Source: a bacterium
Lineage (GTDB): Bacteria; Patescibacteriota; Dojkabacteria; JAKAPS01; JAJZLI01
NCBI GenBank assembly: GCA_021816845.1
Contig: JAKAWT010000001.1
Span: 134,087 to 198,086 of the forward strand
Direction: 5' to 3'
DNA: 64,000 nucleotides
Shown here piece after piece: positions 13,211 to 47,823 of the stretch. The notes under the pieces are model-generated. The model ran no database searches and had not been told where the DNA came from. It saw only the letters and a list, made by a program, of their open reading frames with translations. The position numbers and the translations under genes are program-made. Every line of letters begins with the position of its first letter. Within the stretch, counting starts at the first letter, position 1.

Positions 13211-14344
13211 GTGAATAAAAACTATATATACTTTGACAATTCAGCTACAACAAAAATCGATCAGAGAGTCATTGATGTAATGATTCCTCATATAAAAACC
13301 TTATATGGGAACCCATCAAGTCTACATATGGAAGGACAAAAAGCTAGAAGAGTTATTGATACATCAAGAGAAATCATAGCTTCATATATAGGCTCTGATA
13401 TACAAGAAATTATTTTTACTTCTGGAGGGACTGAAAGTAATAATACTGTAATAAATGGTGTAGCTCATGCATTAAATAAGAAAGGCAAACATATAATAAC
13501 AACATCCATAGAACATGATTCAATACTTCAACCACTAGAAAATCTAAAAGGGTTCGATATAACATATTTAAAACCATCAAAAACAGGTCATATAGATCTG
13601 GATGATCTAAAATCTAAAATTAGGGATGATACTATTCTTATATCTATAGCATATGCAAATTCAGAAATAGGGTCAATTCAGAACATCCCAAAAATAGCAG
13701 AAATAGCCCATGAAAAAGGTGTATTGGTTCATACTGATGCAATGCAAGCAGCTAAATATAGAGATATTAATATACAGAATATTGGGGTTGATCTTATGAC
13801 TTTTGGTGCACATAAAATAAACGGACCAAAGGGTATCGGAGCTTTATTTATAAAAAGAGGAACTATGATAAAACCTCTCATATATGGGGGATCCCAAGAG
13901 TATAGATTTAGAGGAGGAACTGAAAATACACCATTGATTGCAGGATTTGCTAAAGCTGTAGAACTTTTACAAAATGAAAAAATGGTAAGAGCAAAATATG
14001 TAGAATCTTTGAGGGATATGTTTGAATCTGGTTTGCAAAATTATTTAAAAGATATAAAAATAAATGGTGGAGGAGAAAGGTTAGAAAGCATATCTAATAT
14101 ATATTTTAGAAATATATCTACTGAAACTATGATTATAAATTTAGATATGAAAGGTGTTGCTGCATCGGCAGGATCAGCATGTTCTTCCCTATCTTTAGAA
14201 CCTTCACATGTTTTAACATCTATAGGACTAAGTAAAGATGAAGCTAAGCATTCTGTAAGATTTAGTTTTGGCCATGAAAATACTAAATTTGAAATAGAAA
14301 AATGCATAAAGATAATAAGAAAAATATATGGAAATCAATTATAA
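13211..14344 (+). CDS. Cysteine desulfurase (class I, IscS/NifS-like).
   Basis: SGGTESNN, PLP-lysine motif HKINGPKG and active-site SAGSACSS. Confidence 0.85.
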   Translation: MNKNYIYFDNSATTKIDQRVIDVMIPHIKTLYGNPSSLHMEGQKARRVIDTSREIIASYIGSDIQEIIFTSGGTESNNTVINGVAHALNKKGKHIITTSIEHDSILQPLENLKGFDITYLKPSKTGHIDLDDLKSKIRDDTILISIAYANSEIGSIQNIPKIAEIAHEKGVLVHTDAMQAAKYRDINIQNIGVDLMTFGAHKINGPKGIGALFIKRGTMIKPLIYGGSQEYRFRGGTENTPLIAGFAKAVELLQNEKMVRAKYVESLRDMFESGLQNYLKDIKINGGGERLESISNIYFRNISTETMIINLDMKGVAASAGSACSSLSLEPSHVLTSIGLSKDEAKHSVRFSFGHENTKFEIEKCIKIIRKIYGNQL

Positions 14345-15590
14345 CGAAGAAAAAGATATAAGAATATCAAAGCGTATTGAAGCTGTCGCCTATATTTTTA
14401 TAGTTTTATACCTTATTTTTTATAGCTACTTAAACATCAACCAAAACAGTAAAGAATTGTTAATAATAAACAATATCCTAGCATTTACTTTTATTTTAAC
14501 CATATTTTCTATTAATCATATAGTTAGAATAAAATTATTGGCAAAAAAAATTTTTACAGAGGTTATATTATTAACTGTATGGATTTTCATAGAAATATTA
14601 TTTTTTACTACTAAAGATAGTCCCATATTTTTTATATTACCAATTTTAATAATAACTACAGTTATGTCTTATGACAATATCAAAAATGTGATTATCTATA
14701 TATCTATAATTACTATTGGACTTATATCTTTATTTTTTATTCCTTATTACAATAGCCATAACGAAATAGGTATTACAATAATAAAATTTTGGGTGGTATT
14801 TTTCATTATAACTGCAAGTTTCTCATATTTATATGTATATAGGCAGATGACAGAAAAATATCAAGAAGAAAAGGAACTTGCAAAACATAATGAAGCTTTA
14901 ACTAAAGAGAAAAATTCTTTCGTAAGAATTCTTTCTACAGAATTAAAAGATCCTATTAAAAATACTGAAATGCAATTACAAGAAATCCTAGATAAGAATA
15001 AATATGTGTTTAATCCTAATATGAGAGATATTTTAGAAAAAACACTGACGAATGCAAAAACGTTGGATAACTTATCTCAAAATATCTTAACAATGGATAA
15101 CTCAAATATAGATAGTATAACATTTGCCCTCCAGAAAATAGATCTCGGAAATATCTTAAAAGAAGTATTAAGTACACTTGATTTAAAAGCTAAGGAAAGG
15201 AATATATCTATTGTATCTCAAGATATAAAAAATATATATGTGAATGCAGACTATAACAGACTAGGAGAAATTCTGCGTAATGTTATAGATAATGCAATCA
15301 AATATACAGATGAAGGTGGAAATGTATCTATTTTTATATCTAAAGAAAATAATAAAATATATATAAAAATCCAAGATACTGGTATAGGTATACCTGCAGA
15401 TGATATTGATAAACTTTTCACAAAATTTTATAGAGCATCAAACGTGGAGAAAAATACAAAACAAGGTACTGGATTAGGGCTATATCTTGTAAAACAATAT
15501 GTAGAAAAAATGAATGGAGAAATAAAAATAGAGAGTGTTCTTAATAAGGGTACAACTATTACATTAATTATACCTCAATATGGAGAATGA
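14328..15590 (+). CDS. Membrane-bound histidine-kinase-like protein. Its phospho-acceptor H-box histidine is replaced by Thr (ILSTELKDP), while the HATPase domain is intact.
   Basis: About 6 TM helices. N-box NAIKYT, G1 box DTGIGI and G2 box GTGLGLYL. The H-box aligns to SHELRSP in the neighbouring kinases but reads STELKDP. Codon ACA at 14937-14939. Confidence 0.7.
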   Translation: MEINYNEEKDIRISKRIEAVAYIFIVLYLIFYSYLNINQNSKELLIINNILAFTFILTIFSINHIVRIKLLAKKIFTEVILLTVWIFIEILFFTTKDSPIFFILPILIITTVMSYDNIKNVIIYISIITIGLISLFFIPYYNSHNEIGITIIKFWVVFFIITASFSYLYVYRQMTEKYQEEKELAKHNEALTKEKNSFVRILSTELKDPIKNTEMQLQEILDKNKYVFNPNMRDILEKTLTNAKTLDNLSQNILTMDNSNIDSITFALQKIDLGNILKEVLSTLDLKAKERNISIVSQDIKNIYVNADYNRLGEILRNVIDNAIKYTDEGGNVSIFISKENNKIYIKIQDTGIGIPADDIDKLFTKFYRASNVEKNTKQGTGLGLYLVKQYVEKMNGEIKIESVLNKGTTITLIIPQYGE

Positions 15591-16830
15591 TATACGAAAA
15601 TCTATAGAACTGGAGAAAAATCAAAAGTTATCAATAATGATAAGAAACACTATTGGTGTCTTTGCAATTATCATTGGCATACTTTTATTTAATCTTTCTT
15701 TTTTTTCTATAACCCACCTTCAATCAATCTTTATAATATCGGGGTCAGTAGGATCTATATTAATTGTTCTTATATTAAATTATCTTATAAGAACTCCAAG
15801 TGCAAATAAAAATAGACTAGAACTATTTTTATTCTTCATAGTTGTATCACCTCTTGTAATATTATTTGGGGGACCTAAAAGTCCATTTGTTATAGTTTAT
15901 ATGATAATTTTATTTCAAGCCATAATAATTGATGAGGATAATTTTAATTTTATTATTGCTAATCTTCTTCCTATATTCATAAACATAATATATATAATAA
16001 TAACAAGAGAAATCAGCTTAGAAATAATAGTGTTTATTATAATGGAAATTCTAATAAATGTATTTCTATCCATAGAATCTAAAGACCTACTCTATATCAC
16101 ACATACTATTTTAAATAAATATGAAGATGAGAAAAAAACTACAGAAATGATGGAGAGTGTTAATAAGGAGAAAGATGAATTTATATCCACTGCATCCCAT
16201 GAATTACGTTCACCAATATCAGCTGTAAGAGGTTATTTACAATTACTTACAATTGATGAAGATTATCAAAAACTCCCTAGAGATACTTACGAAGATTTAA
16301 AGAAACTTACTGCATCAGCAGAAGATTTAAATAAAGTAGTAGATAACTTATTAAATACCTCCAGAATAGATTTAAATCGAATATATATAAATAAAGTAGA
16401 TACAAACTTAAATTTACAAATATTTAAATCTATTGCAAAAATCATACAGAAAGCAGAGTTAAAAAAAATGAAATTAATATTCAAACCTTACACTGATAAT
16501 ACCATTGTTAATACAGATTCCGAGAAATTATCCGATGTTATAGTAAATATAATTGATAATTCTATAGAAAACTCTCCAGAAGGGGCAGAAATAATTATAA
16601 CTACAGAGAAAAAAGGTAATATTAATCTTATAATTATAAGAGATTTTGGCTATGGTATACCACAGACCATCCTCCCGCATATTTTTGAAAAGTTCTATAT
16701 ATCATCAAACAGAAATAAAAGAACTGGGCTAGGATTATATCTTTCTTATAATTTTATGAGAATGATAGGTGGTAATTTGAAAATTGAGAGTATAGAGAAT
16801 ACAGGAACTACTGCTATTATTGAAATTTAA
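15580..16830 (+). CDS. Membrane-bound sensor histidine kinase.
   Basis: Multiple TM helices. H-box TASHELRSPISAV. A degenerate G-box region ending GLGLYLS. It overlaps the upstream kinase-like gene by 11 nt. Confidence 0.75.
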   Translation: MENDIRKSIELEKNQKLSIMIRNTIGVFAIIIGILLFNLSFFSITHLQSIFIISGSVGSILIVLILNYLIRTPSANKNRLELFLFFIVVSPLVILFGGPKSPFVIVYMIILFQAIIIDEDNFNFIIANLLPIFINIIYIIITREISLEIIVFIIMEILINVFLSIESKDLLYITHTILNKYEDEKKTTEMMESVNKEKDEFISTASHELRSPISAVRGYLQLLTIDEDYQKLPRDTYEDLKKLTASAEDLNKVVDNLLNTSRIDLNRIYINKVDTNLNLQIFKSIAKIIQKAELKKMKLIFKPYTDNTIVNTDSEKLSDVIVNIIDNSIENSPEGAEIIITTEKKGNINLIIIRDFGYGIPQTILPHIFEKFYISSNRNKRTGLGLYLSYNFMRMIGGNLKIESIENTGTTAIIEI

Positions 16831-16863
16831 ACCATTTATCACTATAATAACATTGTTTTATAT

Positions 16864-16935
16864 TCCTCGGTAGCTCAACGGTAGAGCGGCTCGCTGTTAA
16901 CGAGAAGGTTCTAGGTTCGAATCCTAGCCGGGGAG
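16864..16935 (+). tRNA. tRNA-Asn (anticodon GUU).
   Basis: D-arm GCTCAACGGTAGAGC. Anticodon loop CTGTTAA. T-arm CTAGGTTCGAATCCTAG. Acceptor stem TCCTCGG/CCGGGGA. Confidence 0.85.
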
Positions 16936-16981
16936 TTTTATATATGTTTAGATTTCTCCATTCATATATAGTTTTTTAATT

Positions 16982-18391
16982 TTAGATACAACAGCTAACG
17001 CTAGATAGATCACGTATAGAAGATTGAGCTACTAATTTTATCAATTCTGAAAGAGTCGGGAATATATGAATTGTATCTGCTACTTCTGATACTGTCATCT
17101 TATTTTTAACTATCATGACAGCCTCATGTATGATATCTACGGCATCCTTAGATATTAAATGCATTCCTAGTATTTCCTTTGTATCATGATCAATAACCAT
17201 TTTTATATACCCTCTAGTATCTCCTATCAACAAAGCCTTTGGTACCTTATCTAAAGTTAAAGATAAGCAGGAACAATTAAGATTAGTTTGAAAAACATCT
17301 TCATCTCTTAGTCCTACACCTGCAACAGATGGTGTAGCAAAAATTGCATAAGGAACTTCATCATAGTTTATAAAAGAATGATTCCCCTGAATAATATTTA
17401 AAACTGCAAGAGAACCTTCTCTTCCAGCTGTAGTTTCCATTCTTTTTTGTACATCTATAACATCGCCAACAGCGTATATACTAGGATTTGAAGTTTGTAA
17501 ATACTTATTAACCTTAATAGAATGATTTTCTGATATATCAACATTCACTTTATCCAGATTTAAAGATTCTATATTTGGATTTTTTCCTATTGCAAAAAGA
17601 ACTTTATCAAAAACAATTTCAGACTCCCCATCTGGATTTTCTACAAAAGCTCGTCCAGTTTCATCTTTATTTTTTTCAAACCTAGAAACCTTTCCATTCT
17701 TTATTATATCAATGCCGTCTTCTTTAAGATATTTCTCCAAATATTCAGATATTTCTGGTTCTGTTCCTTTAATAAGTCTATCTCCTCTTGTAATCAGAGT
17801 AACTTTACTACCAAAGTGTGAAAACATTTGTGCAAATTCTACACCAACAGCGCCACCTCCTATTATAGTTAACTTAGAAGGTAATTTCTTTAAATGAAGA
17901 GCCTCAATATGTGTCATATAATCTATACTTTCTACACCCTTTACATCAATAAGCTTTGCTTTTGAACCAGTTGCTATTACAAATTTTTCTCCTTTTATTT
18001 TTTTTCCTGATATATCTACTTCATTTTCAGAAATAAATGAAGCTTTCCCTTTAATAAAATCAACATGAGGAAGTTTTCTAAGAACCTGTTCATATTTTTC
18101 ATTCCTCATATTATCCACAATATTTAATTGTGAATGAACAATATCTTCAAAATCAAATTGGACATTTTTAATTTTTATAGAATTAAATCTGGGATTTTTA
18201 GATTCAAATATATACTCTGCATTCTCTATCATATATTTACTAGGAACACAGCCTACATTTACACACGTACCCCCTAAAGGAAGACCACTATTTATAATTA
18301 AAGTATCTACGTTTAACTCATTTGCCTTTATAGCGGCAGCAAAACCTCCTGCACCTCCACCTATTATTATTAACTTATATGAATCTTTCAT
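16982..18391 (-). CDS. merA: Mercuric-reductase-like flavoprotein disulfide oxidoreductase. It has the MerA core without the NmerA domain. The active site is GGTCVNVGCVPSK and there is a C-terminal -SCCI dithiol.
   Basis: N-terminal GGGAGG FAD motif. Redox-active CVNVGC followed by VPSK. The vicinal Cys-Cys two residues from the C-terminus is a MerA hallmark. It lies in an operon with thiol-transfer proteins and an ArsR regulator. Confidence 0.6.
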   Translation of the reverse strand: MKDSYKLIIIGGGAGGFAAAIKANELNVDTLIINSGLPLGGTCVNVGCVPSKYMIENAEYIFESKNPRFNSIKIKNVQFDFEDIVHSQLNIVDNMRNEKYEQVLRKLPHVDFIKGKASFISENEVDISGKKIKGEKFVIATGSKAKLIDVKGVESIDYMTHIEALHLKKLPSKLTIIGGGAVGVEFAQMFSHFGSKVTLITRGDRLIKGTEPEISEYLEKYLKEDGIDIIKNGKVSRFEKNKDETGRAFVENPDGESEIVFDKVLFAIGKNPNIESLNLDKVNVDISENHSIKVNKYLQTSNPSIYAVGDVIDVQKRMETTAGREGSLAVLNIIQGNHSFINYDEVPYAIFATPSVAGVGLRDEDVFQTNLNCSCLSLTLDKVPKALLIGDTRGYIKMVIDHDTKEILGMHLISKDAVDIIHEAVMIVKNKMTVSEVADTIHIFPTLSELIKLVAQSSIRDLSSVSCCI

Positions 18392-19092
18392 AGTATTTTT
18401 AAACTAAAATAAGAACTTAATTGGTAATATATAATGTATAATCCTGCTAAAATCATTATTACCCCTGCAATTTTATTAACAAATTTTCTATATCTGAACA
18501 ATTTATCTTCTATAAAAGTATTAGATACTGCAAGAAGAAAAGATAATAGAAGAGAAATCAGAAATACTCCAGCAAGATATGATAGACCTACTACAATCGT
18601 ATTAAAATAGTTTTTCTCAATAAAGGTTGACAGTACAACTGATATAAACAATGGAAAAGAACACCCTAAAGATACTAATCCATATAATAAACCAAACAAA
18701 TAAATAGATAGAATATTGTTATTTTTCTTTACTTTTTTATCTACGTCAGATTGGAATTGGTGAAATATATTCAAAGATAATCCTCTATTTATAAGTGTAG
18801 AAATCCCTAAGCATATAATTATTATCCCAATAAAAACAGTAATTACAGGAATTACATTAATAATTATATTTCCAAATACAAAAATAATAATAGCAAATAT
18901 TATAAAAATTGTTGAAAACCCTAAAGCTAGAGCGATACCTCTAAACAAACCAAGATAAATTTTTTTCCAAGATTTATCCTCATTACTTTTAATGTAAAAT
19001 CCTATATATGCAGGAATCATCCCAACAGAACAAGGAGATAAAAAAGACAATATTCCTGCACTAAATGCTAAAGATATTAATATATCTGACAT
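18388..19092 (-). CDS. ccdA: CcdA/DsbD-family transmembrane thiol-disulfide transfer protein.
   Basis: Six TM helices. Conserved Cys in LSPCSVGMIP and a second Cys in a later helix (LGCSFP). It overlaps merA by 4 nt. Confidence 0.7.
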   Translation of the reverse strand: MSDILISLAFSAGILSFLSPCSVGMIPAYIGFYIKSNEDKSWKKIYLGLFRGIALALGFSTIFIIFAIIIFVFGNIIINVIPVITVFIGIIIICLGISTLINRGLSLNIFHQFQSDVDKKVKKNNNILSIYLFGLLYGLVSLGCSFPLFISVVLSTFIEKNYFNTIVVGLSYLAGVFLISLLLSFLLAVSNTFIEDKLFRYRKFVNKIAGVIMILAGLYIIYYQLSSYFSLKIL

Positions 19093-19096
19093 ATAG

Positions 19097-19639
19097 TTAT
19101 GATATAGAAGATAAAACCTTTCTAAGAGAACTTTCAGAAGGTAAAACTTTACTGTATACTAAATCTCCGTTTTTATTAATTATATAAACCATATCAAGAC
19201 TAGTAACTTTATAATCTTCTAAAAATGTATTACTTTTTGCTATGACATAAGATACTCGACCATTACCGTTAGTTATTGAATTGATCCATGGCATTAATTC
19301 TGAATATGTATCTATGCTATTTATATCTACTCCATAAAACTTCACATTATTGTATAAGGACGATATTTTTGATAATTCTTTTGATAGTACAGCACAATCT
19401 GCACATCCAGCCTCTATAGTGAATAACACCTGTGCTTTGCTACTTACTCCACCAATATTTACTAATTGATTATTACTATTCATAAAAGATACTACTGGAG
19501 CTATCACTTTGACTGTTTTATTAGTAGTATTCCCTCTTAAAGAACTTCCAGAATTTACTACAAGTATTAATAAGACTATAAATATTACCACACCAACCAT
19601 TATTAATATTACATTTCTACTAGTATTTTTCTTGCTCAT
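19097..19639 (-). CDS. Membrane-anchored thioredoxin-fold protein (TlpA/ResA-like) with a CxxC motif (CADC).
   Basis: N-terminal TM, then a thioredoxin-like domain with AGCADCAV. Confidence 0.6.
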   Translation of the reverse strand: MSKKNTSRNVILIMVGVVIFIVLLILVVNSGSSLRGNTTNKTVKVIAPVVSFMNSNNQLVNIGGVSSKAQVLFTIEAGCADCAVLSKELSKISSLYNNVKFYGVDINSIDTYSELMPWINSITNGNGRVSYVIAKSNTFLEDYKVTSLDMVYIINKNGDLVYSKVLPSESSLRKVLSSIS

Positions 19640-19955
19640 AATTTAAAAATAAAAAATCAATAAAATTAGAAAATTTTTCATCTTTCATAGAATATAGTTT
19701 CTGCCTTGATACTCTTTTAAAATCCACCACATTATTATCTCTAAGCTTTGAAAGCATGTGTGAGACATTAGAAATGGAGCTTCCGACAATATTTGCAATA
19801 TCAGTAACATTCATCTCTGGATAATACCTTAATATGTAACAAATTTTTAAAGTTGTAATATCTCCAAAAACATTACATTCCTGAGAACAAGACAAGATTT
19901 TAGTATTATTACCTAGATTTCTTTTTAATTTTTTAATGTCGACACTTGAATACAT
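19620..19955 (-). CDS. ArsR/SmtB-family metalloregulatory transcriptional repressor.
   Basis: Winged-helix HTH VTDIANIVGSSISNVSHMLSKL. A Cys cluster LSCSQEC upstream of the HTH. The ORF-track start at 19961 is TTG. The first ATG is at 19955. Confidence 0.7.
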   Translation of the reverse strand: MYSSVDIKKLKRNLGNNTKILSCSQECNVFGDITTLKICYILRYYPEMNVTDIANIVGSSISNVSHMLSKLRDNNVVDFKRVSRQKLYSMKDEKFSNFIDFLFLNYEQEKY

Positions 19956-19961
19956 ATTCAA
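19946..19961. promoter_or_regulatory. Palindromic operator TTGAATACATATTCAA (core TGAA-N6-TTCA) centred on the start codon of the minus-strand ArsR gene.
   Basis: Perfect 7-2-7 inverted repeat. It matches the TGAA-N6-TTCA core of known ArsR/SmtB operators such as the CzrA/SmtB 12-2-12 sites. Confidence 0.55.
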
Positions 19962-19963
19962 AT

Positions 19964-19990
19964 ATTATACTTAAATATAAGATATGTCAA
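19964..19990 (-). promoter_or_regulatory. Sigma-70-type promoter for the minus-strand ArsR-Trx-CcdA-MerA operon: TTGACA-N15-TATAAT. It predicts a leaderless or near-leaderless transcript.
   Basis: The reverse complement reads TTGACA (19990-19985) and TATAAT (19969-19964). The -10 ends about 9 nt upstream of the ATG. Confidence 0.5.
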
Positions 19991-20037
19991 GCTCATACTT
20001 TATATCTGGACTAGAGCTTTTAAGATATATAAACGTA

Positions 20038-20064
20038 TTGACAATATTACATAAAAGATATAAT
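20038..20064 (+). promoter_or_regulatory. Sigma-70-type promoter for the plus-strand ArsR/CadC-like gene: TTGACA-N15-TATAAT.
   Basis: TTGACA at 20038-20043 and TATAAT at 20059-20064. It abuts the operator palindrome and lies about 10 nt upstream of the ATG. Confidence 0.5.
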
Positions 20065-20086
20065 ACATGAACATATGTTCATGTAT
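20063..20086. promoter_or_regulatory. Perfect 24-bp palindrome ATACATGAACATATGTTCATGTAT (core TGAA-N6-TTCA) overlapping the -10 element, the transcription start and the ATG of the plus-strand ArsR/CadC-like gene.
   Basis: The sequence is exactly self-complementary. Its core is identical in form to the ArsR/SmtB operator consensus. Confidence 0.6.
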
Positions 20087-20413
20087 AATAATTGTAGATG
20101 CTCTAAAGAGTCAAATTGTTGCAGATATACTGATAATCAAATGTCATATGTTGGAGAACAATTGAAATTAGTCAGTGTTAAAGCGAGACTTAATTTATTA
20201 TTTCTTCTTGAGAATAAAACTCACTGTGTTTCTGATTTGATGGAGCATACTAATCTCTCACAAAGCCTTATTTCTCACCATTTATCAGATTTAGAGAAAT
20301 CAGGATTTGTCAATTCTAAAAAAGATGGGAGATTTGTTGAATATTCATTGACGCAAAAAGGTGAAGAAATTATTAAAAACATATCAAATATAATAGACAA
20401 GGAGGTGATGTAA
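20075..20413 (+). CDS. ArsR/SmtB-family metalloregulator with a CadC-like N-terminal Cys cluster (CRCSKESNCC) and an alpha3 Cys (THCVSDL).
   Basis: HTH LSQSLISHHLSDLEKSGFV. Two thiolate clusters positioned as in CadC. The alternative start is the ATG at 20081. Confidence 0.7.
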   Translation: MFMYNNCRCSKESNCCRYTDNQMSYVGEQLKLVSVKARLNLLFLLENKTHCVSDLMEHTNLSQSLISHHLSDLEKSGFVNSKKDGRFVEYSLTQKGEEIIKNISNIIDKEVM

Positions 20414-20415
20414 TT

Positions 20416-20559
20416 ATGATGAATAAAAAACACTGTTGCGGTGGAGAAAACAAACATATGAATATAGATACAATGTCTAAAGAGAATCTTATTCAAAAAA
20501 AAGAAAGGCTTGAGGAAAGATTAGCAGAAATATCAGAAGCTATTTCAAAAGCTGAATAA
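20416..20559 (+). CDS. Small 47-aa protein with an HCCGG motif and a charged helical tail. It is a candidate metal-binding peptide co-transcribed with the ArsR/CadC-like regulator.
   Basis: Strong Shine-Dalgarno GGAGGTGA 7 nt upstream of the ATG. The ORF is immediately followed by a hairpin terminator. It is not in the ORF track because it falls below the length cutoff. Confidence 0.4.
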   Translation: MMNKKHCCGGENKHMNIDTMSKENLIQKKERLEERLAEISEAISKAE

Positions 20560-20576
20560 GCCATATTATATGGATA

Positions 20577-20601
20577 GCAGAAGAGCTCTTCTGCTATTTG
20601 T
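20577..20601 (+). terminator. Rho-independent terminator. The perfect palindrome AGCAGAAGAGCTCTTCTGCT is followed by ATTTG.
   Basis: An 8-bp GC-containing stem with a 4-nt loop and a weak T tract, directly after the small ORF. Confidence 0.45.
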
Positions 20602-20750: not shown

Positions 20751-21152
20751 ATGGATAATAACACTGATAATACAGAAAATTCTAAAATAGAAACTGAGAA
20801 ACCTGCTTATACTGAAAATAGTTATAAAACAAAAAAAGTTATTTTTAGAGCACATCAGCTAGTCTGGTATATTCTAGGAATAATTGAAGTATTATTAGCC
20901 TTTAGATTTATACTAAAACTCGCAGCTGCAAATCCTGGTAGCGGTTTTGTAAGTTTTATATACTCTACTAGTAATGTTTTCTCTCAACCATTCTCAAGTA
21001 TATTCCATGTAACAGTAACATATAACTCCGTATTCGAATGGTCAACTCTAGTTGCCATGTTTGTATACCTAGTAATTGCATACGGAATTGTTAAGCTTAT
21101 ACAGCTAGTAAATCCTGCAACCCCAGACAAAGTAAAAGAAACAATAGGTTAA
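20751..21152 (+). CDS. YggT-family membrane protein.
   Basis: RFILKLAAANP...Y core typical of YggT/Ycf19. Two TM helices. Confidence 0.55.
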   Translation: MDNNTDNTENSKIETEKPAYTENSYKTKKVIFRAHQLVWYILGIIEVLLAFRFILKLAAANPGSGFVSFIYSTSNVFSQPFSSIFHVTVTYNSVFEWSTLVAMFVYLVIAYGIVKLIQLVNPATPDKVKETIG

Positions 21153-21249: not shown

Positions 21250-21477
21250 TTAGCTTTTAGCATCTGATCCTTTGAAGGGACCTCCAAATAATGGTGCTAA
21301 TACACAAACATTAAATATACCTGCTAAGAAAGGAATTAATCCTATAATTGCTACAACAATACCTTTTTTACCATGGATTGCTAAGAGCCCTACTAATATT
21401 AATACTAAACCCACAATAACCCTAAGCCATCTGCCTGTTGGAGTAGACATAAATTTTGCAAATTTCATATAAATCAC
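21250..21477 (-). CDS. Small inner-membrane protein (YgaP/DUF2892-like, 2 TM).
   Basis: 75 aa with two hydrophobic helices and a GxxxG-rich segment. Confidence 0.4.
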   Translation of the reverse strand: MIYMKFAKFMSTPTGRWLRVIVGLVLILVGLLAIHGKKGIVVAIIGLIPFLAGIFNVCVLAPLFGGPFKGSDAKS

Positions 21478-23974: not shown

Positions 23975-26974
23975 TTGTTAGATAACCTAATTATTATGAT
24001 AGACAAACTGGTTTCATACTCATTAAAAAATAGAACTCTGATATTTGTAATATTAATTTTTTTAGTATTATTTGGGACATACTCATATGTGGTGGCCGAT
24101 AGGGAAGTGTTCCCTAATGTTAACCTATCAACTTTAATAATACAGTCAAATTATCCTGGCATAAATGCAAAAGAAGTTTATACAAATATTACAGAACCTA
24201 TCTATAATGCTATAAAGTCTATATCTGGGATAAAGGATATACAAGAAAATGCTAGTAACGGATATACCACCATTATTGTTACGTCCCATTATGGCGTAAA
24301 CCTTAATCAATTAGAACAAAGTATTAACCAAGATATCCAATCAGTACAATTACCTAGTCAAGCCAGCATTCCTAGTGTATCACAATTTAATTTTTCTGAT
24401 ATTCCTATATTAGAATTATCATTTTCCGGAAAAAATCGAGATAATTTTGTAAAAAATACTATTGTTCCATATATAAATACAGTTTCGGGAGTAAGTAGTG
24501 TTTCTTATTATGGGAATCAAACTCAAGAGTTTAAAATTAACCTAAACTATAACAAATTAACTGAGTATAATATCCCTGTATCGACAGTAGAGAGTATTAT
24601 TAAATCATATAATATAGACACTACAATCGGATCAGTTACATCTAGGAATACAACAGAACCAGTAACGATATATTCTAATGTAACAAATATTAATGCTCTC
24701 AATAATTCAATAATATCTTATCACAACGGACAGATTATTAGACTTAAAGATATTGCTACTTTAAGTATTGTGAATGTTTATAGTAATCAAATAGTTGAAA
24801 CAAATGGTAAAAAATCTGACCTAGTAGACATATTTGGACAACAGAATATCAATACCACAAAAGTAATCAGTACAATATTGAATAAGATAAAGCAAATGAA
24901 CATTAAGGGTATACAATACCAAATATTAAGTAATGATACCTCTACTATTAATTCCACTATTAATGGTATATCAAAGGAAACTTTACTAGGAATCATACTT
25001 GCTATATTTATAATATTCATATTTCTAAAAAGTGGAAATATTACTCTAATAGCATCATTGTCTATTCCAATATCAATATTCTTCACCTTAACTTTAATGA
25101 ATATTCAAAATATAACATTTAATATTATGTCACTTTCTGGATTATCAGTAGCACTTGGGAGAATTTTTGATGATAGTATAGTTGTCATTGAGACCATATT
25201 TAGGCATTTATCAGAGGATGCTATAAAGGATGAGAAGTTGCTGATTAAATCTGTGAAAGAGGTTGGAGGAGCAATAACATCATCTACTCTAACAACAATA
25301 GGAGTCTTTTTACCAATAGCATTTGTAGGAGGAATTACTTCATCATTTTTCGTACCATTTGCGTTCACAGCTTCATCTGCACTTATAGCATCACTTTTCA
25401 CTGCAATAATAATTATACCCATATTCAGCGCCATATTCTTATTACGTAAAAATGCTAAATTAAAGAAAAAAGAATTTTTTTTAACAAAATATTATGAGAG
25501 GTTAATAAATATTTCTTTAAACCATAAAATATTGACAATACTAATAACATTCATTGTAATAGTAGCATCACTATTTTTAATACCATTCATAAAGACTGGA
25601 TTTATCCCATCACCTACAAGTCCAAGTGCGATTGTCTCAGGCTCAATTAAAATTGGATCTTCAAAAACAGAGACATATAATACAGCATTAAAAATAGTAA
25701 ATTATATAAAAACAATAAACAATGTATCATTATATACTGTATCAATAGGATTATCAGACAATAGAGGTATCTCAATAAACACAACTCCACAGAACAATAA
25801 ATTTCAGATATTTATAAATTTTAAAAATAATAATAATATTAATAATGAGATCTATAATATAGAAAACTTCTCAAATAAAATCCAAGGATTGAAAAGTCAA
25901 GTAAACCTTTTATCTGCAGTTGGGAATCTAAACTCTGTGGCATTATCTATAAATTCAAATAACCAGAATAATTTGTATGAAGCTAATAACTATCTTCTTA
26001 GCAAATTAAAAAGTATAGGGGGCATAAGTAATATATCTTCAAACTTATCTTTGAATACATCTCAAAAACAAATAATACTAAATAACGATGTAATGTCTCA
26101 AAACCTTTTATCTTCCATACAAGTTCTATCTCAAATATCTCCATATTTCACACCATTAGAAATTAAAAACTACAACATAAATGGATCTTTATATGATACA
26201 TATATATATGTAAACAATCTACCTAATATATCAAATATATATATAACTAATTCTATTGGAGAGAAAATTCTTTTATCTAAAATTGCTGTAGTAAAAAATA
26301 GCAAATATAGTTCAAATATTACATATGAAAATGGTAAAAGAGCATCAGTTATTAATGCATTAATAACTGCAAAAAATACACAAAAAGTGAACTCTAGTAT
26401 AACAAGTTATATTAAAAAAACTCAAAATAAATATAACGTTACTATAACAAACCAGGGATCTTCATCTGAACAATCATCTTCTTTTAATTCTCTTTTTGAA
26501 GCTATGGGAATATCAGTATTTATAGTTCTTGTTATAATGATCATAACATTTTCATCTATCATAGAACCTATTGCAATTCTCTTCTCACTACCTGTAACAA
26601 TAATAGGAGTCCTAGTAGCCTTATTTATAACAGATTCAACACTAGACCTACCTTCTTTGATAGGTATGTTAATGCTTATTGGTATAGTGGTAACAAATGC
26701 CATAGTTCTCCTTACCAAAATTAAACAGAATATTGTAAGTGGTAGTGATATTAGACAAGCTATAATTGATGGAGGGAAAGTAAGATTAAGACCAATACTA
26801 ATGACTGCAATAACAACTATATTTGCTCTATTACCATTAGCATTATTTTCATCAACATCTACTCTGATAGGTAAATCCCTAGCCATAACAGTCATCGGAG
26901 GGCTATTTACCTCTACATTCTTAACTCTATTTATAGTCCCAGTTATTTATTCAATATTAAAAAGATCTAAATAA
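23975..26974 (+). CDS. RND-superfamily transporter (AcrB/MMPL-like, 12 TM) with a long Asn-rich low-complexity insert in an extracytoplasmic loop.
   Basis: 999 aa. Two TM bundles separated by large loops. N-terminal AcrB-like region. A conserved C-terminal TM bundle (LMLIGIVVTNAIVL..). Confidence 0.65.
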   Translation: MLDNLIIMIDKLVSYSLKNRTLIFVILIFLVLFGTYSYVVADREVFPNVNLSTLIIQSNYPGINAKEVYTNITEPIYNAIKSISGIKDIQENASNGYTTIIVTSHYGVNLNQLEQSINQDIQSVQLPSQASIPSVSQFNFSDIPILELSFSGKNRDNFVKNTIVPYINTVSGVSSVSYYGNQTQEFKINLNYNKLTEYNIPVSTVESIIKSYNIDTTIGSVTSRNTTEPVTIYSNVTNINALNNSIISYHNGQIIRLKDIATLSIVNVYSNQIVETNGKKSDLVDIFGQQNINTTKVISTILNKIKQMNIKGIQYQILSNDTSTINSTINGISKETLLGIILAIFIIFIFLKSGNITLIASLSIPISIFFTLTLMNIQNITFNIMSLSGLSVALGRIFDDSIVVIETIFRHLSEDAIKDEKLLIKSVKEVGGAITSSTLTTIGVFLPIAFVGGITSSFFVPFAFTASSALIASLFTAIIIIPIFSAIFLLRKNAKLKKKEFFLTKYYERLINISLNHKILTILITFIVIVASLFLIPFIKTGFIPSPTSPSAIVSGSIKIGSSKTETYNTALKIVNYIKTINNVSLYTVSIGLSDNRGISINTTPQNNKFQIFINFKNNNNINNEIYNIENFSNKIQGLKSQVNLLSAVGNLNSVALSINSNNQNNLYEANNYLLSKLKSIGGISNISSNLSLNTSQKQIILNNDVMSQNLLSSIQVLSQISPYFTPLEIKNYNINGSLYDTYIYVNNLPNISNIYITNSIGEKILLSKIAVVKNSKYSSNITYENGKRASVINALITAKNTQKVNSSITSYIKKTQNKYNVTITNQGSSSEQSSSFNSLFEAMGISVFIVLVIMIITFSSIIEPIAILFSLPVTIIGVLVALFITDSTLDLPSLIGMLMLIGIVVTNAIVLLTKIKQNIVSGSDIRQAIIDGGKVRLRPILMTAITTIFALLPLALFSSTSTLIGKSLAITVIGGLFTSTFLTLFIVPVIYSILKRSK

Positions 26975-29309: not shown

Positions 29310-30719
29310 ATGCAAACAAGATTGTATATAGCTAATTTGCCTTTTTCTTTTAATAGAGATGATATGACACGCCTATTTTCTAAATATGGGAAAATAGTAG
29401 ATGTTTACGTACCAGATAAAAAAGGATTCGGATTTTTAGAAATGTCTAATCCAAGTGAGGCTTTAAATGTAATTAATAATACTGATAAAAAGATGATTGA
29501 AGGAAGAAAGTTATCAGTAGTATTTGCACAAAAAAGAGCTGAAAGAACATATGATAGTAATAAAAATTATAATAGCAAGTATAAATCAGCTTTTAGAAAG
29601 AATAAGATAGATTTAAAAAAAATAGATATCTCATTATTTGTTAAAGAATCATCTTTGAATAATGCATCTGAATATGTACCTCAAAATAAATTCTCTGATT
29701 TTAAAATTAGCAGTGAAATAAAAAATATAATAGAAAAAAGAGGTTTTATATCCCCTACTGTCATACAGGATAAAACAATTCCAGAGATAATCAAAGGTAG
29801 TGATGTAATAGGGATTGCTGATACAGGAACTGGCAAGACTGCTGCATTTTTGATACCTCTGATAGATAAAATAATAAAGGATAATTCACAAAAGGTTCTA
29901 ATTATAGCACCTACCAGAGAATTAGCATCACAAATAAGAGATGAGCTTTTCCAATTTTCAAAGGGGTTACCTATAAGGTCAGCTTTACTTATTGGAGGTA
30001 GCTCTATGTATCAACAAATAAATAATCTAAGGAATAATCCCAACTTTATTATTGGGACTCCAGGAAGGATTAAAGATTTAACTTCTAAACATTATGTACC
30101 ATTAAAGGATATAAATAATGTTGTTTTAGACGAAGTTGATAGAATGCTTGATATGGGATTTATAGAAGATATTCAAAATATATTCTCATCACTACCTTTA
30201 TTAAGACAATCATTATTTTTCTCTGCAACAGTCCCACCAAAAGTTAAGACTTTAGCAGTAAAACTTTTAAAAGACCCTATTATAATTACAGTAGAACCTA
30301 AAGATTCATACAATAACATAACACAAAATATTGTAAAATATAGAGACACTGGAGAAAAAATAGAACTATTACATAATCTACTAATAAAGGATGAGTATAA
30401 AAAAGTACTTATATTTAACAGAACGAAAAGAGATGTTGATAATCTTGCAAAAGAATTATTAAAGAGGGGGTTTAAAGTGGAATCTATACATGGAGATAAA
30501 ATGCAATCAAGAAGACAAAAAGCTATAGATAATTTTAAAAACAATATAAATAATATCCTTGTGGCTACTGATGTTGCAGCAAGAGGATTAGACATAAGTG
30601 ATATATCTCATGTTATAAATTATGAAGTACCATCAACCTATGAGGATTACCTTCATAGGATAGGTAGAACCGGTAGAGCAAATAAACAAGGTTCCTCTAT
30701 AACATTTGTGAAAGTATAA
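29310..30719 (+). CDS. DEAD-box ATP-dependent RNA helicase with an N-terminal RRM-like domain.
   Basis: N-terminal RNP-type fold (LYIANLPFS...KGFGFLEM). The helicase core has AxTGTGKT, PTRELA, SAT, a DEVD variant of DEAD, and HRIGRTGR. Confidence 0.8.
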   Translation: MQTRLYIANLPFSFNRDDMTRLFSKYGKIVDVYVPDKKGFGFLEMSNPSEALNVINNTDKKMIEGRKLSVVFAQKRAERTYDSNKNYNSKYKSAFRKNKIDLKKIDISLFVKESSLNNASEYVPQNKFSDFKISSEIKNIIEKRGFISPTVIQDKTIPEIIKGSDVIGIADTGTGKTAAFLIPLIDKIIKDNSQKVLIIAPTRELASQIRDELFQFSKGLPIRSALLIGGSSMYQQINNLRNNPNFIIGTPGRIKDLTSKHYVPLKDINNVVLDEVDRMLDMGFIEDIQNIFSSLPLLRQSLFFSATVPPKVKTLAVKLLKDPIIITVEPKDSYNNITQNIVKYRDTGEKIELLHNLLIKDEYKKVLIFNRTKRDVDNLAKELLKRGFKVESIHGDKMQSRRQKAIDNFKNNINNILVATDVAARGLDISDISHVINYEVPSTYEDYLHRIGRTGRANKQGSSITFVKV

Positions 30720-46950: not shown

Positions 46951-47823
46951 ATGGTATTAACAGCTACTATAACAGTATTATTTTATGCATTTCTATTAGG
47001 CCTAGTTCATGGGATAACCCCAGATGAACACACCTGGCCTATAACCTTCTCTTATGCAATAGGAAGTTTTTCATCTAGAAAAGGTTTATATGTAGCTATA
47101 CTATTTTCATTAGCATTCACGGTGCAGAGAGCGATAGCATCAGAGATTGCTTATTTTGCACTTATAAATTGGGCGCAATTTCCATCTTTGAATTATTATG
47201 TATATTTAATAGTAGGTTTAGCAATGTTTTTAGTAGGAATATATGTTTTAAGATTCAATAAGATATTTCATATCGAACTTCTTCCTTCTTCATGGATAGG
47301 TAAACATAAACATCATGAATTTGAGGATACACCAAGACAAATAAAACCTTCTATGGCACTTTTACATGGATTTATAGCAGGATGGGGATTTGGTGCTTTT
47401 GCATTGATATTATACACTGTACTTGTGCCAAAAATGCCAAATATGTATGTAGCGTTCCTACCTGGAGTATTTTTTGGATTAGGAACAATGTTTGTACAAG
47501 CTATTTTCGGAAGCATTTTTGGAAGGTGGATTAGAAATATGAAAATTCCAGAATCAGAAGGATTAAAATTGGCATCTAAAGTTGCAGGTAATACGCTTTT
47601 CGGGGGTGGAATAGTTTTTATATTAGGAGGAATGTTTGGACTTTTATTTCCTAGGATAGCAAATCTACATATTGTTACACCAATAAATGTACACAATCTA
47701 CATAACTTAGGATTAGCATTTGTTATGGTTATGACTACAGTTTTGTTTATAGGCGTAGGATCTATATATATAAATATGCATAAAATAAAAGAAAAATACC
47801 AAAATACAAATGAAACCCCTTAA
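46951..47823 (+). CDS. Integral membrane protein. It may be a NicO/HoxN-like metal-ion transporter.
   Basis: About 7 TM. The first helix carries HGITPDEH and a later helix carries LLHGFIAGWG, which resembles NicO-type repeats. The call is weak. Confidence 0.3.
   Translation: MVLTATITVLFYAFLLGLVHGITPDEHTWPITFSYAIGSFSSRKGLYVAILFSLAFTVQRAIASEIAYFALINWAQFPSLNYYVYLIVGLAMFLVGIYVLRFNKIFHIELLPSSWIGKHKHHEFEDTPRQIKPSMALLHGFIAGWGFGAFALILYTVLVPKMPNMYVAFLPGVFFGLGTMFVQAIFGSIFGRWIRNMKIPESEGLKLASKVAGNTLFGGGIVFILGGMFGLLFPRIANLHIVTPINVHNLHNLGLAFVMVMTTVLFIGVGSIYINMHKIKEKYQNTNETP

Follow-up and report, generated by a model that had tools for sequence, protein, structure and literature searches.

A candidate ArsR-controlled mer operon with a thioredoxin-like/CcdA pair in an uncultured low-GC bacterium

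Six open reading frames (ORFs) described in an earlier note, together with the motifs quoted from them, were confirmed at their given coordinates in the 64-kb stretch of DNA analyzed here (the window), and the family assignments lie well beyond what chance would give. Four of them are located on the minus strand and follow each other from the promoter in the order arsR1, trx, ccdA and merA; a second regulator gene, arsR2, and the gene of a small HCCGG peptide are located on the plus strand. The genes are closely packed: the TGA stop codon of ccdA and the ATG of merA form a 4-nt ATGA overlap, the 3' end of arsR1 overlaps trx by 20 nt, and trx and ccdA are spaced by a 4-nt gap with no overlap. 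The overlap sizes of the earlier note were thus correct, but its proposal that these overlaps couple both trx and ccdA to merA was not: the 4-nt spacer between trx and ccdA leaves ccdA as the one gene that an overlap couples directly to merA.

The merA gene (16982..18391, minus strand) encodes a 469-aa flavoprotein that contains GGTCVNVGCVPSK, ends in SCCI and lacks the NmerA domain; it is a predicted core mercuric reductase. With the MerA equivalog model TIGR02053, its score is 490.9 bits (cut-off 454.45), whereas the models of other flavoprotein disulfide reductases (DLD, GR, TGR and RclA among them) all remain under their own cut-offs, so that the choice between MerA and DLD, GR or TrxR, raised as a test in the earlier note, falls to MerA. 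The closest PDB relatives are the MerA structures 5x1y, 4ywo and 1zk7. Aligned residue by residue with Tn501 MerA, the flavoprotein has the redox pair C43/C48, Y100, F444 and the C-terminal pair C467/C468, and the latter aligns with Tn501 C558/C559, the positional equivalence on which the mercury reading had been made to depend. F444 is the archaeal-type Phe variant that is also present in the MerA of M. sedula (4ywo). Every signature residue from the sequence criteria commonly applied to MerA (Boyd & Barkay 2012, PMC3466566) was found, with the Phe of archaeal type. Bacterial MerAs with this Phe, as well as a CPR MerA lineage, have been reported (Christakis et al. 2021, PMC8261052), and the MerA clade includes many Patescibacteria. 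Judged by its sequence, the merA product is very likely a genuine mercuric reductase, and the mercury reading is supported.

The plausible genes of the 64-kb window were searched for small membrane ORFs with a CC or CxxC in a transmembrane (TM) segment and for the G[ML]xCxxC motif. This turned up no MerT, MerP or HMA-like ORF in the window, which bears out the absence of canonical MerT and MerP. At the usual place of the Hg transport genes, the Trx-like/CcdA pair is present as proposed.

The ccdA gene (18388..19092, minus strand) encodes a CcdA-family six-helix membrane protein of 234 aa, assigned by Pfam (DsbD_2 31.3, cut-off 24.9; DsbD_TM 27.4, cut-off 27.1), fold match and alignments. The cysteines C21 (TM1, SPC) and C144 (TM4, SLGCSFP) are invariant in two alignments. 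The AF2 model (pLDDT 71) has the CcdA structure 5vkv as sole meaningful PDB fold match (probability 1.00, TM 0.57). The protein and the S. aureus mer-operon CcdA share 29% identity (E 9e-27), and 36 of the 43 matches in a tblastn search of plasmids were Staphylococcus mer CcdAs. At the profile level, it matches generic CcdAs (E 1.5e-28) and mer-linked CcdAs (E 4e-26) comparably. All family-invariant residues are retained, the fold is like that of the electron transporter 5vkv, and there is no sign of neofunctionalization.

The product of trx (19097..19639, minus strand) is a 180-aa protein with one N-terminal TM helix (residues 10-28) and the CxxC motif C79-A-D-C82, and is probably membrane-anchored and extracytoplasmic. 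Its AF2 model is poor (pLDDT 46), and the predicted thioredoxin fold is taken from profile matches only: Pfam Thioredoxin_8 and Redoxin match weakly and below threshold, and the clade profile retrieves the thioredoxin-like protein 3ha9 from the PDB (E 3.9e-6), with weak matches to ResA and Trx. The canonical cis-Pro position is occupied by D149, and all 26 aligned subfamily members carry D, S, E, N or G there.

The regulator gene arsR1 (19620..19955, minus strand) starts at the ATG at 19955, giving a protein of 111 aa, while the ORF list begins at a TTG at 19961. ArsR1 is assigned to the ArsR/SmtB family by Pfam HTH_5 (26.1, cut-off 22) and by its orthologues, which are encoded upstream of merA in L001, L098, L003 and L099; with the NCBIfam metalloregulator model NF033788 it scores 49.5, just under the cut-off of 55. 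C23 and C39 (LKICY) are conserved among CPR orthologues. The mer promoter and a candidate operator (19946..19990, minus strand) were identified by promoter scan and conserved layout, with a -35 box TTGACA (19985-19990), a -10 box TAATAT (19962-19967) and a palindrome TTGAAT-ATGT-ATTCAA (19946-19961) that straddles the arsR1 start codon; the mer mRNA is probably leaderless. L001 and L098 show the same -35/-10/TTGAAT/ATG layout; in L003 and L099, TGAA-N6-TTCA palindromes occur. The motif TGAAYATNNRTTCA has three sites in the 64 kb (0.24 expected), two of which coincide exactly with the start codons of arsR1 and arsR2.

The gene arsR2 (20075..20413, plus strand) encodes an ArsR/SmtB metalloregulator of 112 aa (NF033788 64.6, cut-off 55; Pfam HTH_5 E 3e-17) with an N-terminal cysteine cluster (C7, C9, C15 and C16) and C51 at the alpha3 'HCVSD' position. 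Its start codon is the center of a 32-bp near-perfect palindrome (20059..20090, plus strand), a candidate ArsR-type operator consisting of 16-nt arms that are 94% complementary without spacer, with the core ATACATGAACAT/ATGTTCATGTAT and a shared TGAAC-ATAT-GTTCA core. The HCCGG peptide gene (20416..20559, plus strand) follows 2 nt downstream of arsR2 and is preceded by a strong Shine-Dalgarno sequence (AAGGAGGTGA, 7 nt upstream of the ATG). The 47-aa peptide (MMNKKHCCGG...) has a predicted C-terminal helix, matches no family among the Pfam and NCBIfam models, and was encountered only in L009 and L010, from further assemblies of this species. Both the divergent CadC-like ArsR with its cysteine cluster and the peptide are thus present as described. 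Neither belongs to the mer cassette of the relatives L001 and L098, however, and they are therefore probably a unit apart from the mer operon, with arsR2 probably serving as a sensor unit.

The order ArsR, Trx, CcdA, MerA and the ccdA/merA overlap are maintained in L001 (MerA 62% identical) and L098 (53%), where the genomic neighborhoods of the cassette differ. In Woykebacteria and Curtissbacteria, the order is ArsR (39% identical to ArsR1), MerC-like (PF03203, E 4e-4 and 3e-5) and MerA, the MerC-like gene taking the same slot as the Trx/CcdA pair; a Chloroflexi relative encodes CsoR, MerT, MerA and an HMA protein. The genomic context of the relatives, another test of the mercury reading, thus consists of metal genes (ArsR with MerC-like; CsoR with MerT and HMA; P-type ATPases). 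An independent branch of the Trx-like subfamily, found by sequence alone, includes L101, with Trx-CcdA-MerA and no MerT, and L102, with an ArsR-Trx arrangement.

On balance, we read 16982-19990, from its sequence, as an ArsR-controlled mer operon of an uncultured low-GC bacterium, a minimal version, with four genes, of the 'TlpA-like/CcdA' type. A function in Hg resistance is likely, and in one way or another the Trx/CcdA pair probably acts on Hg(II) at the envelope. When no Hg(II) is present, ArsR1 would bind the TTGAAT-N4-ATTCAA palindrome and repress the leaderless arsR1-trx-ccdA-merA transcript; Hg(II) bound by C23 and C39 would release it. The membrane-anchored Trx-fold protein would expose the C79xxC82 dithiol outside the cell as an Hg(II) trap, a counterpart of MerP. 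The cis-proline normally blocks metal binding in thioredoxins, and its loss is the reason for proposing this role. CcdA may then take Hg(II) onto the alternating-access pair C21/C144 and carry it to the cytoplasmic face, as MerT or MerC would. No other step is as uncertain, and that CcdA itself is the Hg(II) conduit is a tentative proposal that we hold slightly less probable than not. C467/C468 of MerA would pick up Hg(II) and pass it to C43/C48 and FAD, for NAD(P)H-driven reduction to volatile Hg(0), a chemistry that is established for MerA and is assigned here by family membership.

A less probable but serious reading is that the operon is a mer operon in which CcdA only exports reducing equivalents, drawn from cytoplasmic thioredoxin or perhaps from the MerA C-terminal dithiol, keeping the exofacial CxxC protein as a dithiol that sequesters Hg(II) or repairs Hg-damaged or oxidized surface thiols. 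Hg(II) would then reach MerA by passive entry (as neutral complexes or thiol conjugates) or via MerT where present. The typical CcdA of the window, with its invariant residues, profile similarity and fold, suits this role, and an exofacial CxxC without reductant supply would be expected to oxidize. Trx-likes without cis-Pro paired with CcdA are, moreover, also common at actinobacterial loci that have no merA within 6 kb, so that pair and proline loss alike are not confined to mer. In the Staphylococcus and actinobacterial operons, the pair occurs besides a MerT/MerF-like transporter, with which a reductant-supplying CcdA is equally compatible. The operons of the window clade and L101, in contrast, have no other transporter, while sister operons have MerC-like or MerT in that place, and the tight ccdA/merA overlap is kept across the clade. 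Thioredoxin-fold reductases engage their partners via the cis-Pro loop, and its loss would suit a metal site better than a reductase.

It is improbable that the flavoprotein serves primarily as an NAD(P)H-driven disulfide reductase and reduces CcdA directly through its flexible C-terminal Cys-Cys, the three proteins forming a self-contained, thioredoxin-independent export of reducing power to the cell surface, with ArsR1 sensing thiol or oxidant stress instead of Hg. The mobile-tail cysteine pair does resemble high-Mr TrxR chemistry, ccdA and merA are translationally coupled, and sensing of sulfur species is known within the ArsR family, for example from BigR, to which ArsR1 gives a weak match (E 1.4e-4). 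The MerA equivalog assignment, the MerA-specific Y100 and the Phe/Tyr position nevertheless argue against it, as do sister-lineage orthologues beside MerC-like, MerT, HMA and P-type ATPase genes without CcdA, and the homologous Staphylococcus and Actinobacteria pairs that share operons with merB and merT. Least probable is that merA adjoins by chance a CcdA/ResA-type pair with a housekeeping role in cytochrome c maturation or the reduction of envelope disulfides: CcdA/Trx pairs generally have such roles, and the majority of the CcdA relatives retrieved from genomes are not beside merA, but here the four genes overlap or abut behind one promoter, the cassette travels as a unit between different neighborhoods, at least three other lineages show the same linkage and, as weak evidence, no CxxCH-containing ORF of at least 100 aa was found across the 64-kb window.

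The preferred reading, a mer operon with an envelope pair acting on Hg(II), has precedents, and the architecture is less uncommon than the earlier note held. The S. aureus pI258-type operon comprises merR, TlpA-like, CcdA, merT, merA and merB, and Mycobacterium and Streptomyces plasmids carry ArsR, MerT-like, Trx and CcdA beside merA-merB. The Trx-like protein of the window is specifically related to these mer-linked Trx-likes (profile comparison with hhalign, probability 98.9%, E 1.1e-17) and lacks the cis-Pro as they do; among its plasmid matches, the two with the best E-values (1e-4) and the Streptomyces matches (5e-3) are actinobacterial mer Trx proteins. In Staphylococcus and Actinobacteria, however, a 2-TM MerT/MerF-like protein with CC motifs accompanies the pair, which thus does not simply stand in for a transporter there. 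Among archaeal and early-branching mer operons, many function without any transporter (PMC3466566), so the transporter slot need not be filled. Trx/CcdA pairs in mer operons are thus already known, though little studied, in Staphylococcus and actinobacteria; what differs here is the missing MerT, the CPR-type ArsR with an operator across its own start codon, and the MerC-like gene in the corresponding slot of sister operons.

All six open reading frames (ORFs) named in the earlier note were found where it had placed them in the window (28% GC; ORF listing). The minus strand carries arsR1 (19620-19955 counted from the ATG), encoding an ArsR family regulator, followed by trx (19097-19639), encoding a 180-aa Trx-like protein with one N-terminal TM helix and the motif C79-A-D-C82, ccdA (18388-19092), encoding a 234-aa CcdA-like protein, and merA (16982-18391), encoding a 469-aa flavoprotein that contains GGTCVNVGCVPSK and ends in SCCI. 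On the plus strand, arsR2 (20075-20413) encodes a second ArsR with cysteines at positions 7, 9, 15, 16 and 51 and is followed by the gene of a 47-aa HCCGG peptide (20416-20559). Both trx and ccdA had been described as coupled to merA through overlaps of 4 nt and 20 nt. The ATGA overlap does join ccdA and merA, but the 20-nt overlap lies between arsR1 and trx, while trx and ccdA stand 4 nt apart. Judged by this spacing, the four mer genes are a tight operon. ORFs for MerT, MerP or an HMA-like protein were found neither in the operon nor elsewhere in the 64-kb window. The end of a tRNA-Asn(GTT) gene (16863-16936) is 46 nt away from the stop codon of merA. An integration island at this tRNA was considered and rejected, as neither an integrase nor an att-like second copy of the tRNA 3' end occurs in the window.

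Against the NCBIfam equivalog model of MerA (TIGR02053), the flavoprotein scores 490.9 bits and exceeds the cut-off of 454.45. It scores 385.7 against the lipoamide (dihydrolipoyl) dehydrogenase model, below that model's cut-off of 408.8, and far below the cut-offs of the GR, TGR, RclA and mycothione reductase models. The closest solved structures are all MerAs, namely 5x1y (E 2e-98), 4ywo of M. sedula (E 2e-85) and the Tn501 core 1zk7 (E 5e-74), with DLDs coming next. In the alignment, C43 and C48 in GGTCVNVGCVPSK correspond to C42 and C47 of the 1zk7 chain, that is C136 and C141 of Tn501, the redox-active CxxxxC beside FAD. The C-terminal pair C467/C468 stands opposite Tn501 C558/C559, and its alignment with the CC of 1zk7, 5x1y and 4ywo is free of gaps. 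Y100 aligns with Tn501 Y194 (Bacillus 264), and F444 aligns with Tn501 Y535 (Bacillus 605), a position at which M. sedula MerA (4ywo) likewise has Phe. In the MerA criteria used for mer surveys, Tyr is the bacterial and Phe the archaeal-type state at Tn501 position 535 (Boyd & Barkay 2012, PMC3466566). Forty-six bacterial MerAs with Phe at the equivalent position were already known, as was a MerA lineage of CPR bacteria that is sister to Thermococci and Archaeoglobi (PMC8261052). The window MerA lacks the NmerA domain and is a core enzyme. Homologues with 45-50% identity are numerous and carry the NCBI name mercury(II) reductase in Curtiss-, Woyke-, Davies- and Magasanikbacteria. By the survey criteria, applied to its sequence, the flavoprotein is a MerA.

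Two related loci, whose MerA is 62% (L001) and 53% (L098) identical, have retained the cassette of four genes with its ccdA/merA overlap, each in a neighbourhood of its own. The cassette of L001 is located downstream of an rpoA-rplQ-rplM-rpsI cluster, with two unrelated genes intervening. MerA relatives with 89% and 67% identity seem to lie on the same contigs as matching CcdA homologues, to judge by the identical lengths of these contigs. In two CPR (Microgenomates) operons, of Candidatus Woykebacteria (GCA_040881185.1) and Candidatus Curtissbacteria (GCA_016183325.1), an orthologous ArsR (37-39% identical, with the same conserved Cys) and a core MerA (~47% identical) flank a single MerC-like membrane protein of 126-132 aa with GACPLCW in a TM helix, whereas the window has Trx and CcdA in its place. 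A Chloroflexi MerA relative is encoded in the order CsoR, MerT, MerA and HMA protein, and further relatives have P-type ATPases or Fur/CbiMQO genes as neighbours, so that these contexts are metal contexts. The slot between regulator and reductase may be taken by interchangeable Hg-handling modules. The mercury reading of the earlier note is thus supported by model score, by the aligned C-terminal CC and by the gene contexts of the relatives, and it holds on the three points on which it had been made to depend, namely affiliation with MerA rather than with DLD, GR or TrxR, the position of the CC pair, and the linkage of homologous operons to metal genes.

The Trx-like protein is very divergent in sequence. 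A word-indexed search of 5.8 billion proteins yielded just five relatives, and HMMER just 52 at E <= 1e-3 among 1.84 billion representatives. Thioredoxin_8 (E 4e-3) and Redoxin (E 9e-3) remain under the cut-off, as do all Pfam thioredoxin-like models. When the profile of the clade was compared with the PDB, it matched the thioredoxin-like protein 3ha9 (E 3.9e-6) and, weakly, ResA and thioredoxins. The AF2 model built from a five-sequence alignment is poor (pLDDT 46) and was left out of the fold search; its order of secondary structure elements fits a thioredoxin fold. The cis-Pro position, placed by sequence alignment and not on a confident structure, is occupied by D149 (YKVTSLD). All 26 subfamily members aligned have D, S, E, N or G at this position, where generic CcdA partners have Pro. 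With hhalign, the window clade matched mer-linked Trx-like proteins with a probability of 98.9% (E 1.1e-17), non-mer actinobacterial partners without cis-Pro with 94.9% (E 4e-8) and CcdA partners with cis-Pro with 38% (E 3e-4). These profile comparisons suggest that the Trx-like protein has its homologues in the mer-linked subfamily rather than among generic ResA/TlpA proteins. The chain 3ha9_A, the nearest of the solved structures to the clade and annotated as ‘uncharacterized thioredoxin-like protein’, has VRSID (with Asp at the cis-Pro site) and YxxxxPS motifs in common with the Trx-like clade, so the subfamily without cis-Pro already has a solved structure.

A scan seeded with another branch of the subfamily (five sequences, picked by sequence only) returned just two loci, both metagenomic. 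The first (L101) has the order Trx-like, CcdA and MerA (with NmerA, ending in SCCAG), with no MerT between ccdA and merA, and the second (L102) has the order ArsR and Trx-like. The idea that Trx-like proteins without cis-Pro are exclusive to mer operons was discarded. Such partners occur at many CcdA loci of Streptomyces and other actinobacteria that lack a merA within 6 kb, and the neighbours of these non-mer redoxins upstream of CcdA are Crp, NicO, DUF4331 and DUF3179 genes. The Trx/CcdA pair is not mer-exclusive. A large actinobacterial family (among L018-L097, the CcdA loci from genomes; e.g. L029:5344-6897 and L020:5464-6915) combines a CcdA having AAVNPCGFALLP ... ASLGCTIA with a CPxC redoxin without cis-Pro (FxVTxQS), and its role may be metal-related.

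The CcdA-like protein narrowly exceeds the Pfam gathering scores of DsbD_2 (31.3 vs 24.9) and DsbD_TM (27.4 vs 27.1). Its cysteines C21 (TM1) and C144 (TM4) are invariant in alignments of 10 and 36 sequences, and the TM4 context is SLGCSFP, where WTPCIGP is usual. A moderate AF2 model (pLDDT 71, pTM 0.67) retrieved the NMR structure of CcdA (5vkv) as top Foldseek match with probability 1.00 and TM 0.57, the runner-up having a probability of only 0.12, which points to a six-helix CcdA fold. A mer-specific CcdA subfamily is unsupported, since hhalign matched mer-linked and generic CcdAs equally well and the TM4 motif alone hints at a distinction. As aligned and modelled, the protein is entirely canonical in sequence and fold. 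Genomes scanned with the CcdA alignment gave 80 CcdA loci, mostly actinobacterial or from Thermomicrobium, and merA was not found within 6 kb of most of these.

ArsR1 scores 26.1 against Pfam HTH_5 (cut-off 22) and 49.5 against NF033788 (below its cut-off of 55), and ArsR2 scores 62.5 and 64.6 against the same models. Five CPR orthologues retain C23 and C39 of ArsR1, and only three retain C27. In the arsR1 promoter, 17 nt separate a consensus -35 (TTGACA) from TAATAT, after which comes TTGAAT|ATG, and the closeness of the -10 to the start codon implies a leaderless transcript. The orthologues are apparently leaderless too, with 6 nt between the -10 and the ATG in a conserved TAAYAY-TTGAAT-ATG (19946-19967 in the window, ~4390-4430 in L001, ~1640-1680 in L098). 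A recognisable Shine-Dalgarno sequence precedes none of the four mer genes. The promoter layout is the same in L001 and L098 and in the Woykebacteria and Curtissbacteria loci (L003, L099), where a TGAA-N6-TTCA palindrome lies between -10 and ATG. A candidate operator of the window, the palindrome TTGAAT-ATGT-ATTCAA (19946-19961), extends across the arsR1 start codon, and a 32-bp near-perfect palindrome on the arsR2 start codon has its core in common with it. The operator-like motif TGAAYATNNRTTCA occurs at three sites in the 64 kb (0.24 expected), two of them on the arsR start codons. These inverted repeats are candidate ArsR operators that overlap the promoter and are conserved in orthologous loci. 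The third and only remaining site (47880-47893, TGAATATAAATTCA) is located ~70 nt into an ORF without Pfam hit (47810-48742) and may be a further target of ArsR1 or ArsR2.

Compared with the CadC-type alpha3N site, ArsR2 has the N-terminal cysteines C7, C9, C15 and C16, but a single alpha3 Cys (HCVSD). The peptide gene begins 2 nt past arsR2 and has the sole strong Shine-Dalgarno sequence of the locus (AAGGAGGTGA). The peptide itself (MMNKKHCCGGENKH..., with a helical C-terminus) matched no family and was found only in further assemblies of the same species. Neither arsR2 nor the peptide is part of the cassette in L001 and L098, and on sequence grounds the two would best be treated as a neighbouring sensor unit. 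Just downstream of this unit are genes for a YggT-like membrane protein (20751-21152; sub-threshold Pfam match) and a 75-aa YgaP-like TM protein (DUF2892; 21250-21477). In E. coli, the ArsR-type regulator YgaV is paired with YgaP, and by this likeness ArsR2 may control the YggT-like and YgaP-like genes instead of the mer genes.

Other genes of the window were noted in passing. Two tandem, overlapping histidine kinase genes (14328-15590 and 15580-16830) encode multi-helix membrane N-termini and have no adjacent response regulator. A 999-aa RND pump of the AcrB/AcrD/AcrF family (23975-26974; E 2e-176) has just MsrA/MsrB and short ORFs immediately upstream. The product of a DEAD-box helicase gene (29310-30719) has an N-terminal RRM_1 RNA-recognition motif (E 4e-14), a fusion that seems unusual in a bacterium. 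ARAGORN reported a tRNA-Asn with anticodon ATT at 6693-6766, inside the ORF 5427-7094, and this call is probably a false positive as it has no Rfam support.

The window agrees with the Staphylococcus (L012), actinobacterial (L016, L017) and metagenomic (L101) mer loci in having a Trx-like gene directly ahead of ccdA, with linkage to merA and a metal regulator. When 72,556 plasmids were searched with the window CcdA (tblastn), 43 records matched, 36 of them staphylococcal plasmids on which the mer operon ‘CcdA’ is the matching gene. The S. aureus pI258-type operon (NZ_LR130516.1 and 35 more staphylococcal plasmids) comprises merR, TlpA-like, CcdA, merT, merA and merB, of which the TlpA-like and CcdA genes presumably are ‘ORF3’ and ‘ORF4’ in the original numbering. 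It shares with the window the succession of regulator, anchored Trx-like CxxC protein, CcdA and merA on one strand. Over 215 residues, the CcdAs have an identity of 29% (E 9e-27) and agree in both Cys and in SLGC(S/T)xP, and the Trx-like proteins share a replaced cis-Pro (YGVKQLE against YKVTSLD) and a C-terminal PS motif; pairwise BLAST gave no match between the latter two, whose kinship is seen at profile level only. The Staphylococcus operon differs in its MerR-family regulator (ArsR in the window), in a 2-TM MerT-like protein (LLCCAGP ... CCTPP) between CcdA and MerA, in the N-terminal HMA domain of its MerA and in the presence of merB.

The S. lividans-type loci of actinobacteria (e.g. 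plasmid pELW1-1 of Mycobacterium sp. ELW1 and a Streptomyces longwoodensis plasmid) encode ArsR, MerT-like, Trx-like and CcdA proteins, divergent from merA-merB. Like the window, they have an ArsR-family regulator ahead of the Trx-like-then-CcdA pair and a linked merA. In 7.3 Gb of plasmids, the two best matches of the Trx-like protein by E-value (1e-4) and its Streptomyces matches (5e-3) are actinobacterial mer ‘thioredoxin family’ genes. These loci differ from the window in the divergent merA (downstream of ccdA in the window), in a ~100-aa MerT/MerF-like CC protein and merB, in a C-terminal DDCCAP tail of CcdA and in the candidate sensory Cys of ArsR, which are CLSDCGYV plus a C-terminal Cys and in the CPR ArsR1 C23 and C39. 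The tail belongs to a ~70-residue C-terminal extension (L016:4369-5295, L017:4342-5301), and in Streptomyces another CC occurs at the extreme end. By analogy with the cytoplasmic Cys pair of MerT, the vicinal pair in DDCCAP hints at Hg hand-off by the actinobacterial CcdA. Actinomycete proteins with TrxA and CcdA domains were tabulated as ‘mercury transporter’ in a 2025 review (PMC12195606).

L012, L016 and L017 encode a 2-TM MerT/MerF-like protein whose TM1 contains a CC pair; such a protein is absent from the window operon and the rest of the 64-kb window. The locus belongs functionally with the Gram-positive TlpA-like/CcdA mer operons and lacks their usual MerT-like companion. It departs from them further in having a CPR-type ArsR in place of MerR, in its core MerA with Phe at the 535-equivalent position and, as against the actinobacterial loci, in the order of the genes. 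The earlier note had called its architecture uncommon, which overstates the case, given that the Trx-like/CcdA pair already occurs in staphylococcal and actinobacterial mer operons. The locus is not, by gene content, an operon of the Tn21/Tn501 type. It lacks MerR, MerT, HMA-type MerP, NmerA and MerD and has Phe instead of Tyr at the 535-equivalent position; the Trx-like protein is not homologous to MerP, which has the HMA fold, nor is CcdA homologous to MerT. The C-terminal CC and active site of the two MerAs align, and the proposed logic would be alike, leading from an exofacial CxxC via a membrane Cys pair to the MerA C-terminal Cys pair and the active site. The window pair resembles the extracytoplasmic reducing pathways of CcdA-ResA/TlpA/Etrx in the way the two genes are paired, in the CcdA fold and probably also in the thioredoxin fold, and it retains the CxxC as well as the two cysteines of CcdA. 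It differs from these pathways in a Trx-like partner that has no cis-Pro and stays under threshold on Pfam thioredoxin-like models, and in its place in a metal-regulated operon with mercuric reductase, not among cytochrome c maturation or Msr genes. A link to the nearby MsrA/MsrB by analogy with the pneumococcal CcdA-Etrx-Msr system was rejected, as both are without signal peptide and lie 3 kb off behind unrelated genes.

The sequence shows a MerA, an anchored CxxC protein of the mer-linked Trx-like subfamily, a CcdA that keeps its two cysteines and an ArsR with a conserved candidate operator. In the proposed mechanism, Hg(II) would induce the operon and would be captured outside the cell membrane by the dithiol of the Trx-like protein, a thioredoxin-fold protein turned metal site upon loss of its cis-proline. 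CcdA would receive Hg(II) from this exofacial protein, hold it as a bis-thiolate on the alternating-access Cys pair that normally carries a disulfide, and hand it directly to the C-terminal Cys pair of the core MerA. We tentatively favour CcdA as an Hg(II) conduit, a reading that falls somewhat short of probable. It draws on the lack of any other transporter in the window clade and L101, on the MerC-like or MerT gene in the equivalent slot of sister operons, on the conserved ccdA/merA coupling and on the loss of cis-Pro from the Trx-like protein. The cis-Pro of the thioredoxin fold disfavours metal binding at the CxxC. That the pair forms a true Hg(II) translocation relay, including hand-over to the C-terminal Cys pair of MerA, is possible but doubtful. 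That CcdA merely supplies reductant is rather unlikely, although the protein is canonical throughout, Staphylococcus and Actinobacteria have the pair alongside MerT-like proteins, and homologous pairs occur outside mer loci; the same four observations that favour a conduit weigh against this role. A non-mercury redox role of the flavoprotein, at odds with its MerA assignment, and chance adjacency of genes whose cassette is kept in L001 and L098 are improbable even when taken together. In the searchable literature, the Trx/CcdA proteins of mer operons occur in annotation tables only, and no functional study was found.

As the pair occurs without any MerT in the window clade and in L101, these loci are the cleanest natural system for deciding whether CcdA moves Hg(II) or only reduces an exofacial Hg trap. 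Mer operons with the pair are found in Staphylococcus, in Actinobacteria, in an unassigned Firmicutes-like metagenomic lineage and in the low-GC, probably CPR, clade of the window, whose CPR identity is suggested by the relatives of MerA and by the 28% GC. Mercury-operon surveys tabulate MerT, MerP, MerC, MerE, MerF, MerG and MerH and omit the Trx-like/CcdA pair (PMC3466566, PMC8261052). MerH, the actinobacterial Hg transporter on pMAB23, is a case separate from MerT, MerC, MerE and MerF; we ruled out that it is a CcdA-like protein, as it has 170 aa and its locus contains no CcdA. To call the genes of the pair ‘cytochrome c biogenesis protein CcdA’ and ‘thiol-disulfide isomerase’ is misleading where the organisms may have no cytochromes c. 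The loci point to modular evolution, in which a conserved ArsR-MerA core is combined with either a MerC-like gene or a Trx/CcdA pair in one slot. If the pair is indeed an Hg(II) relay, it would join MerT, MerC, MerE and MerF as an additional class of mercury transporter, in which a thiol-disulfide relay is re-used as a metal-ion relay, and the TlpA-like and CcdA genes of pI258, left untabulated by current mer surveys, would acquire a function.
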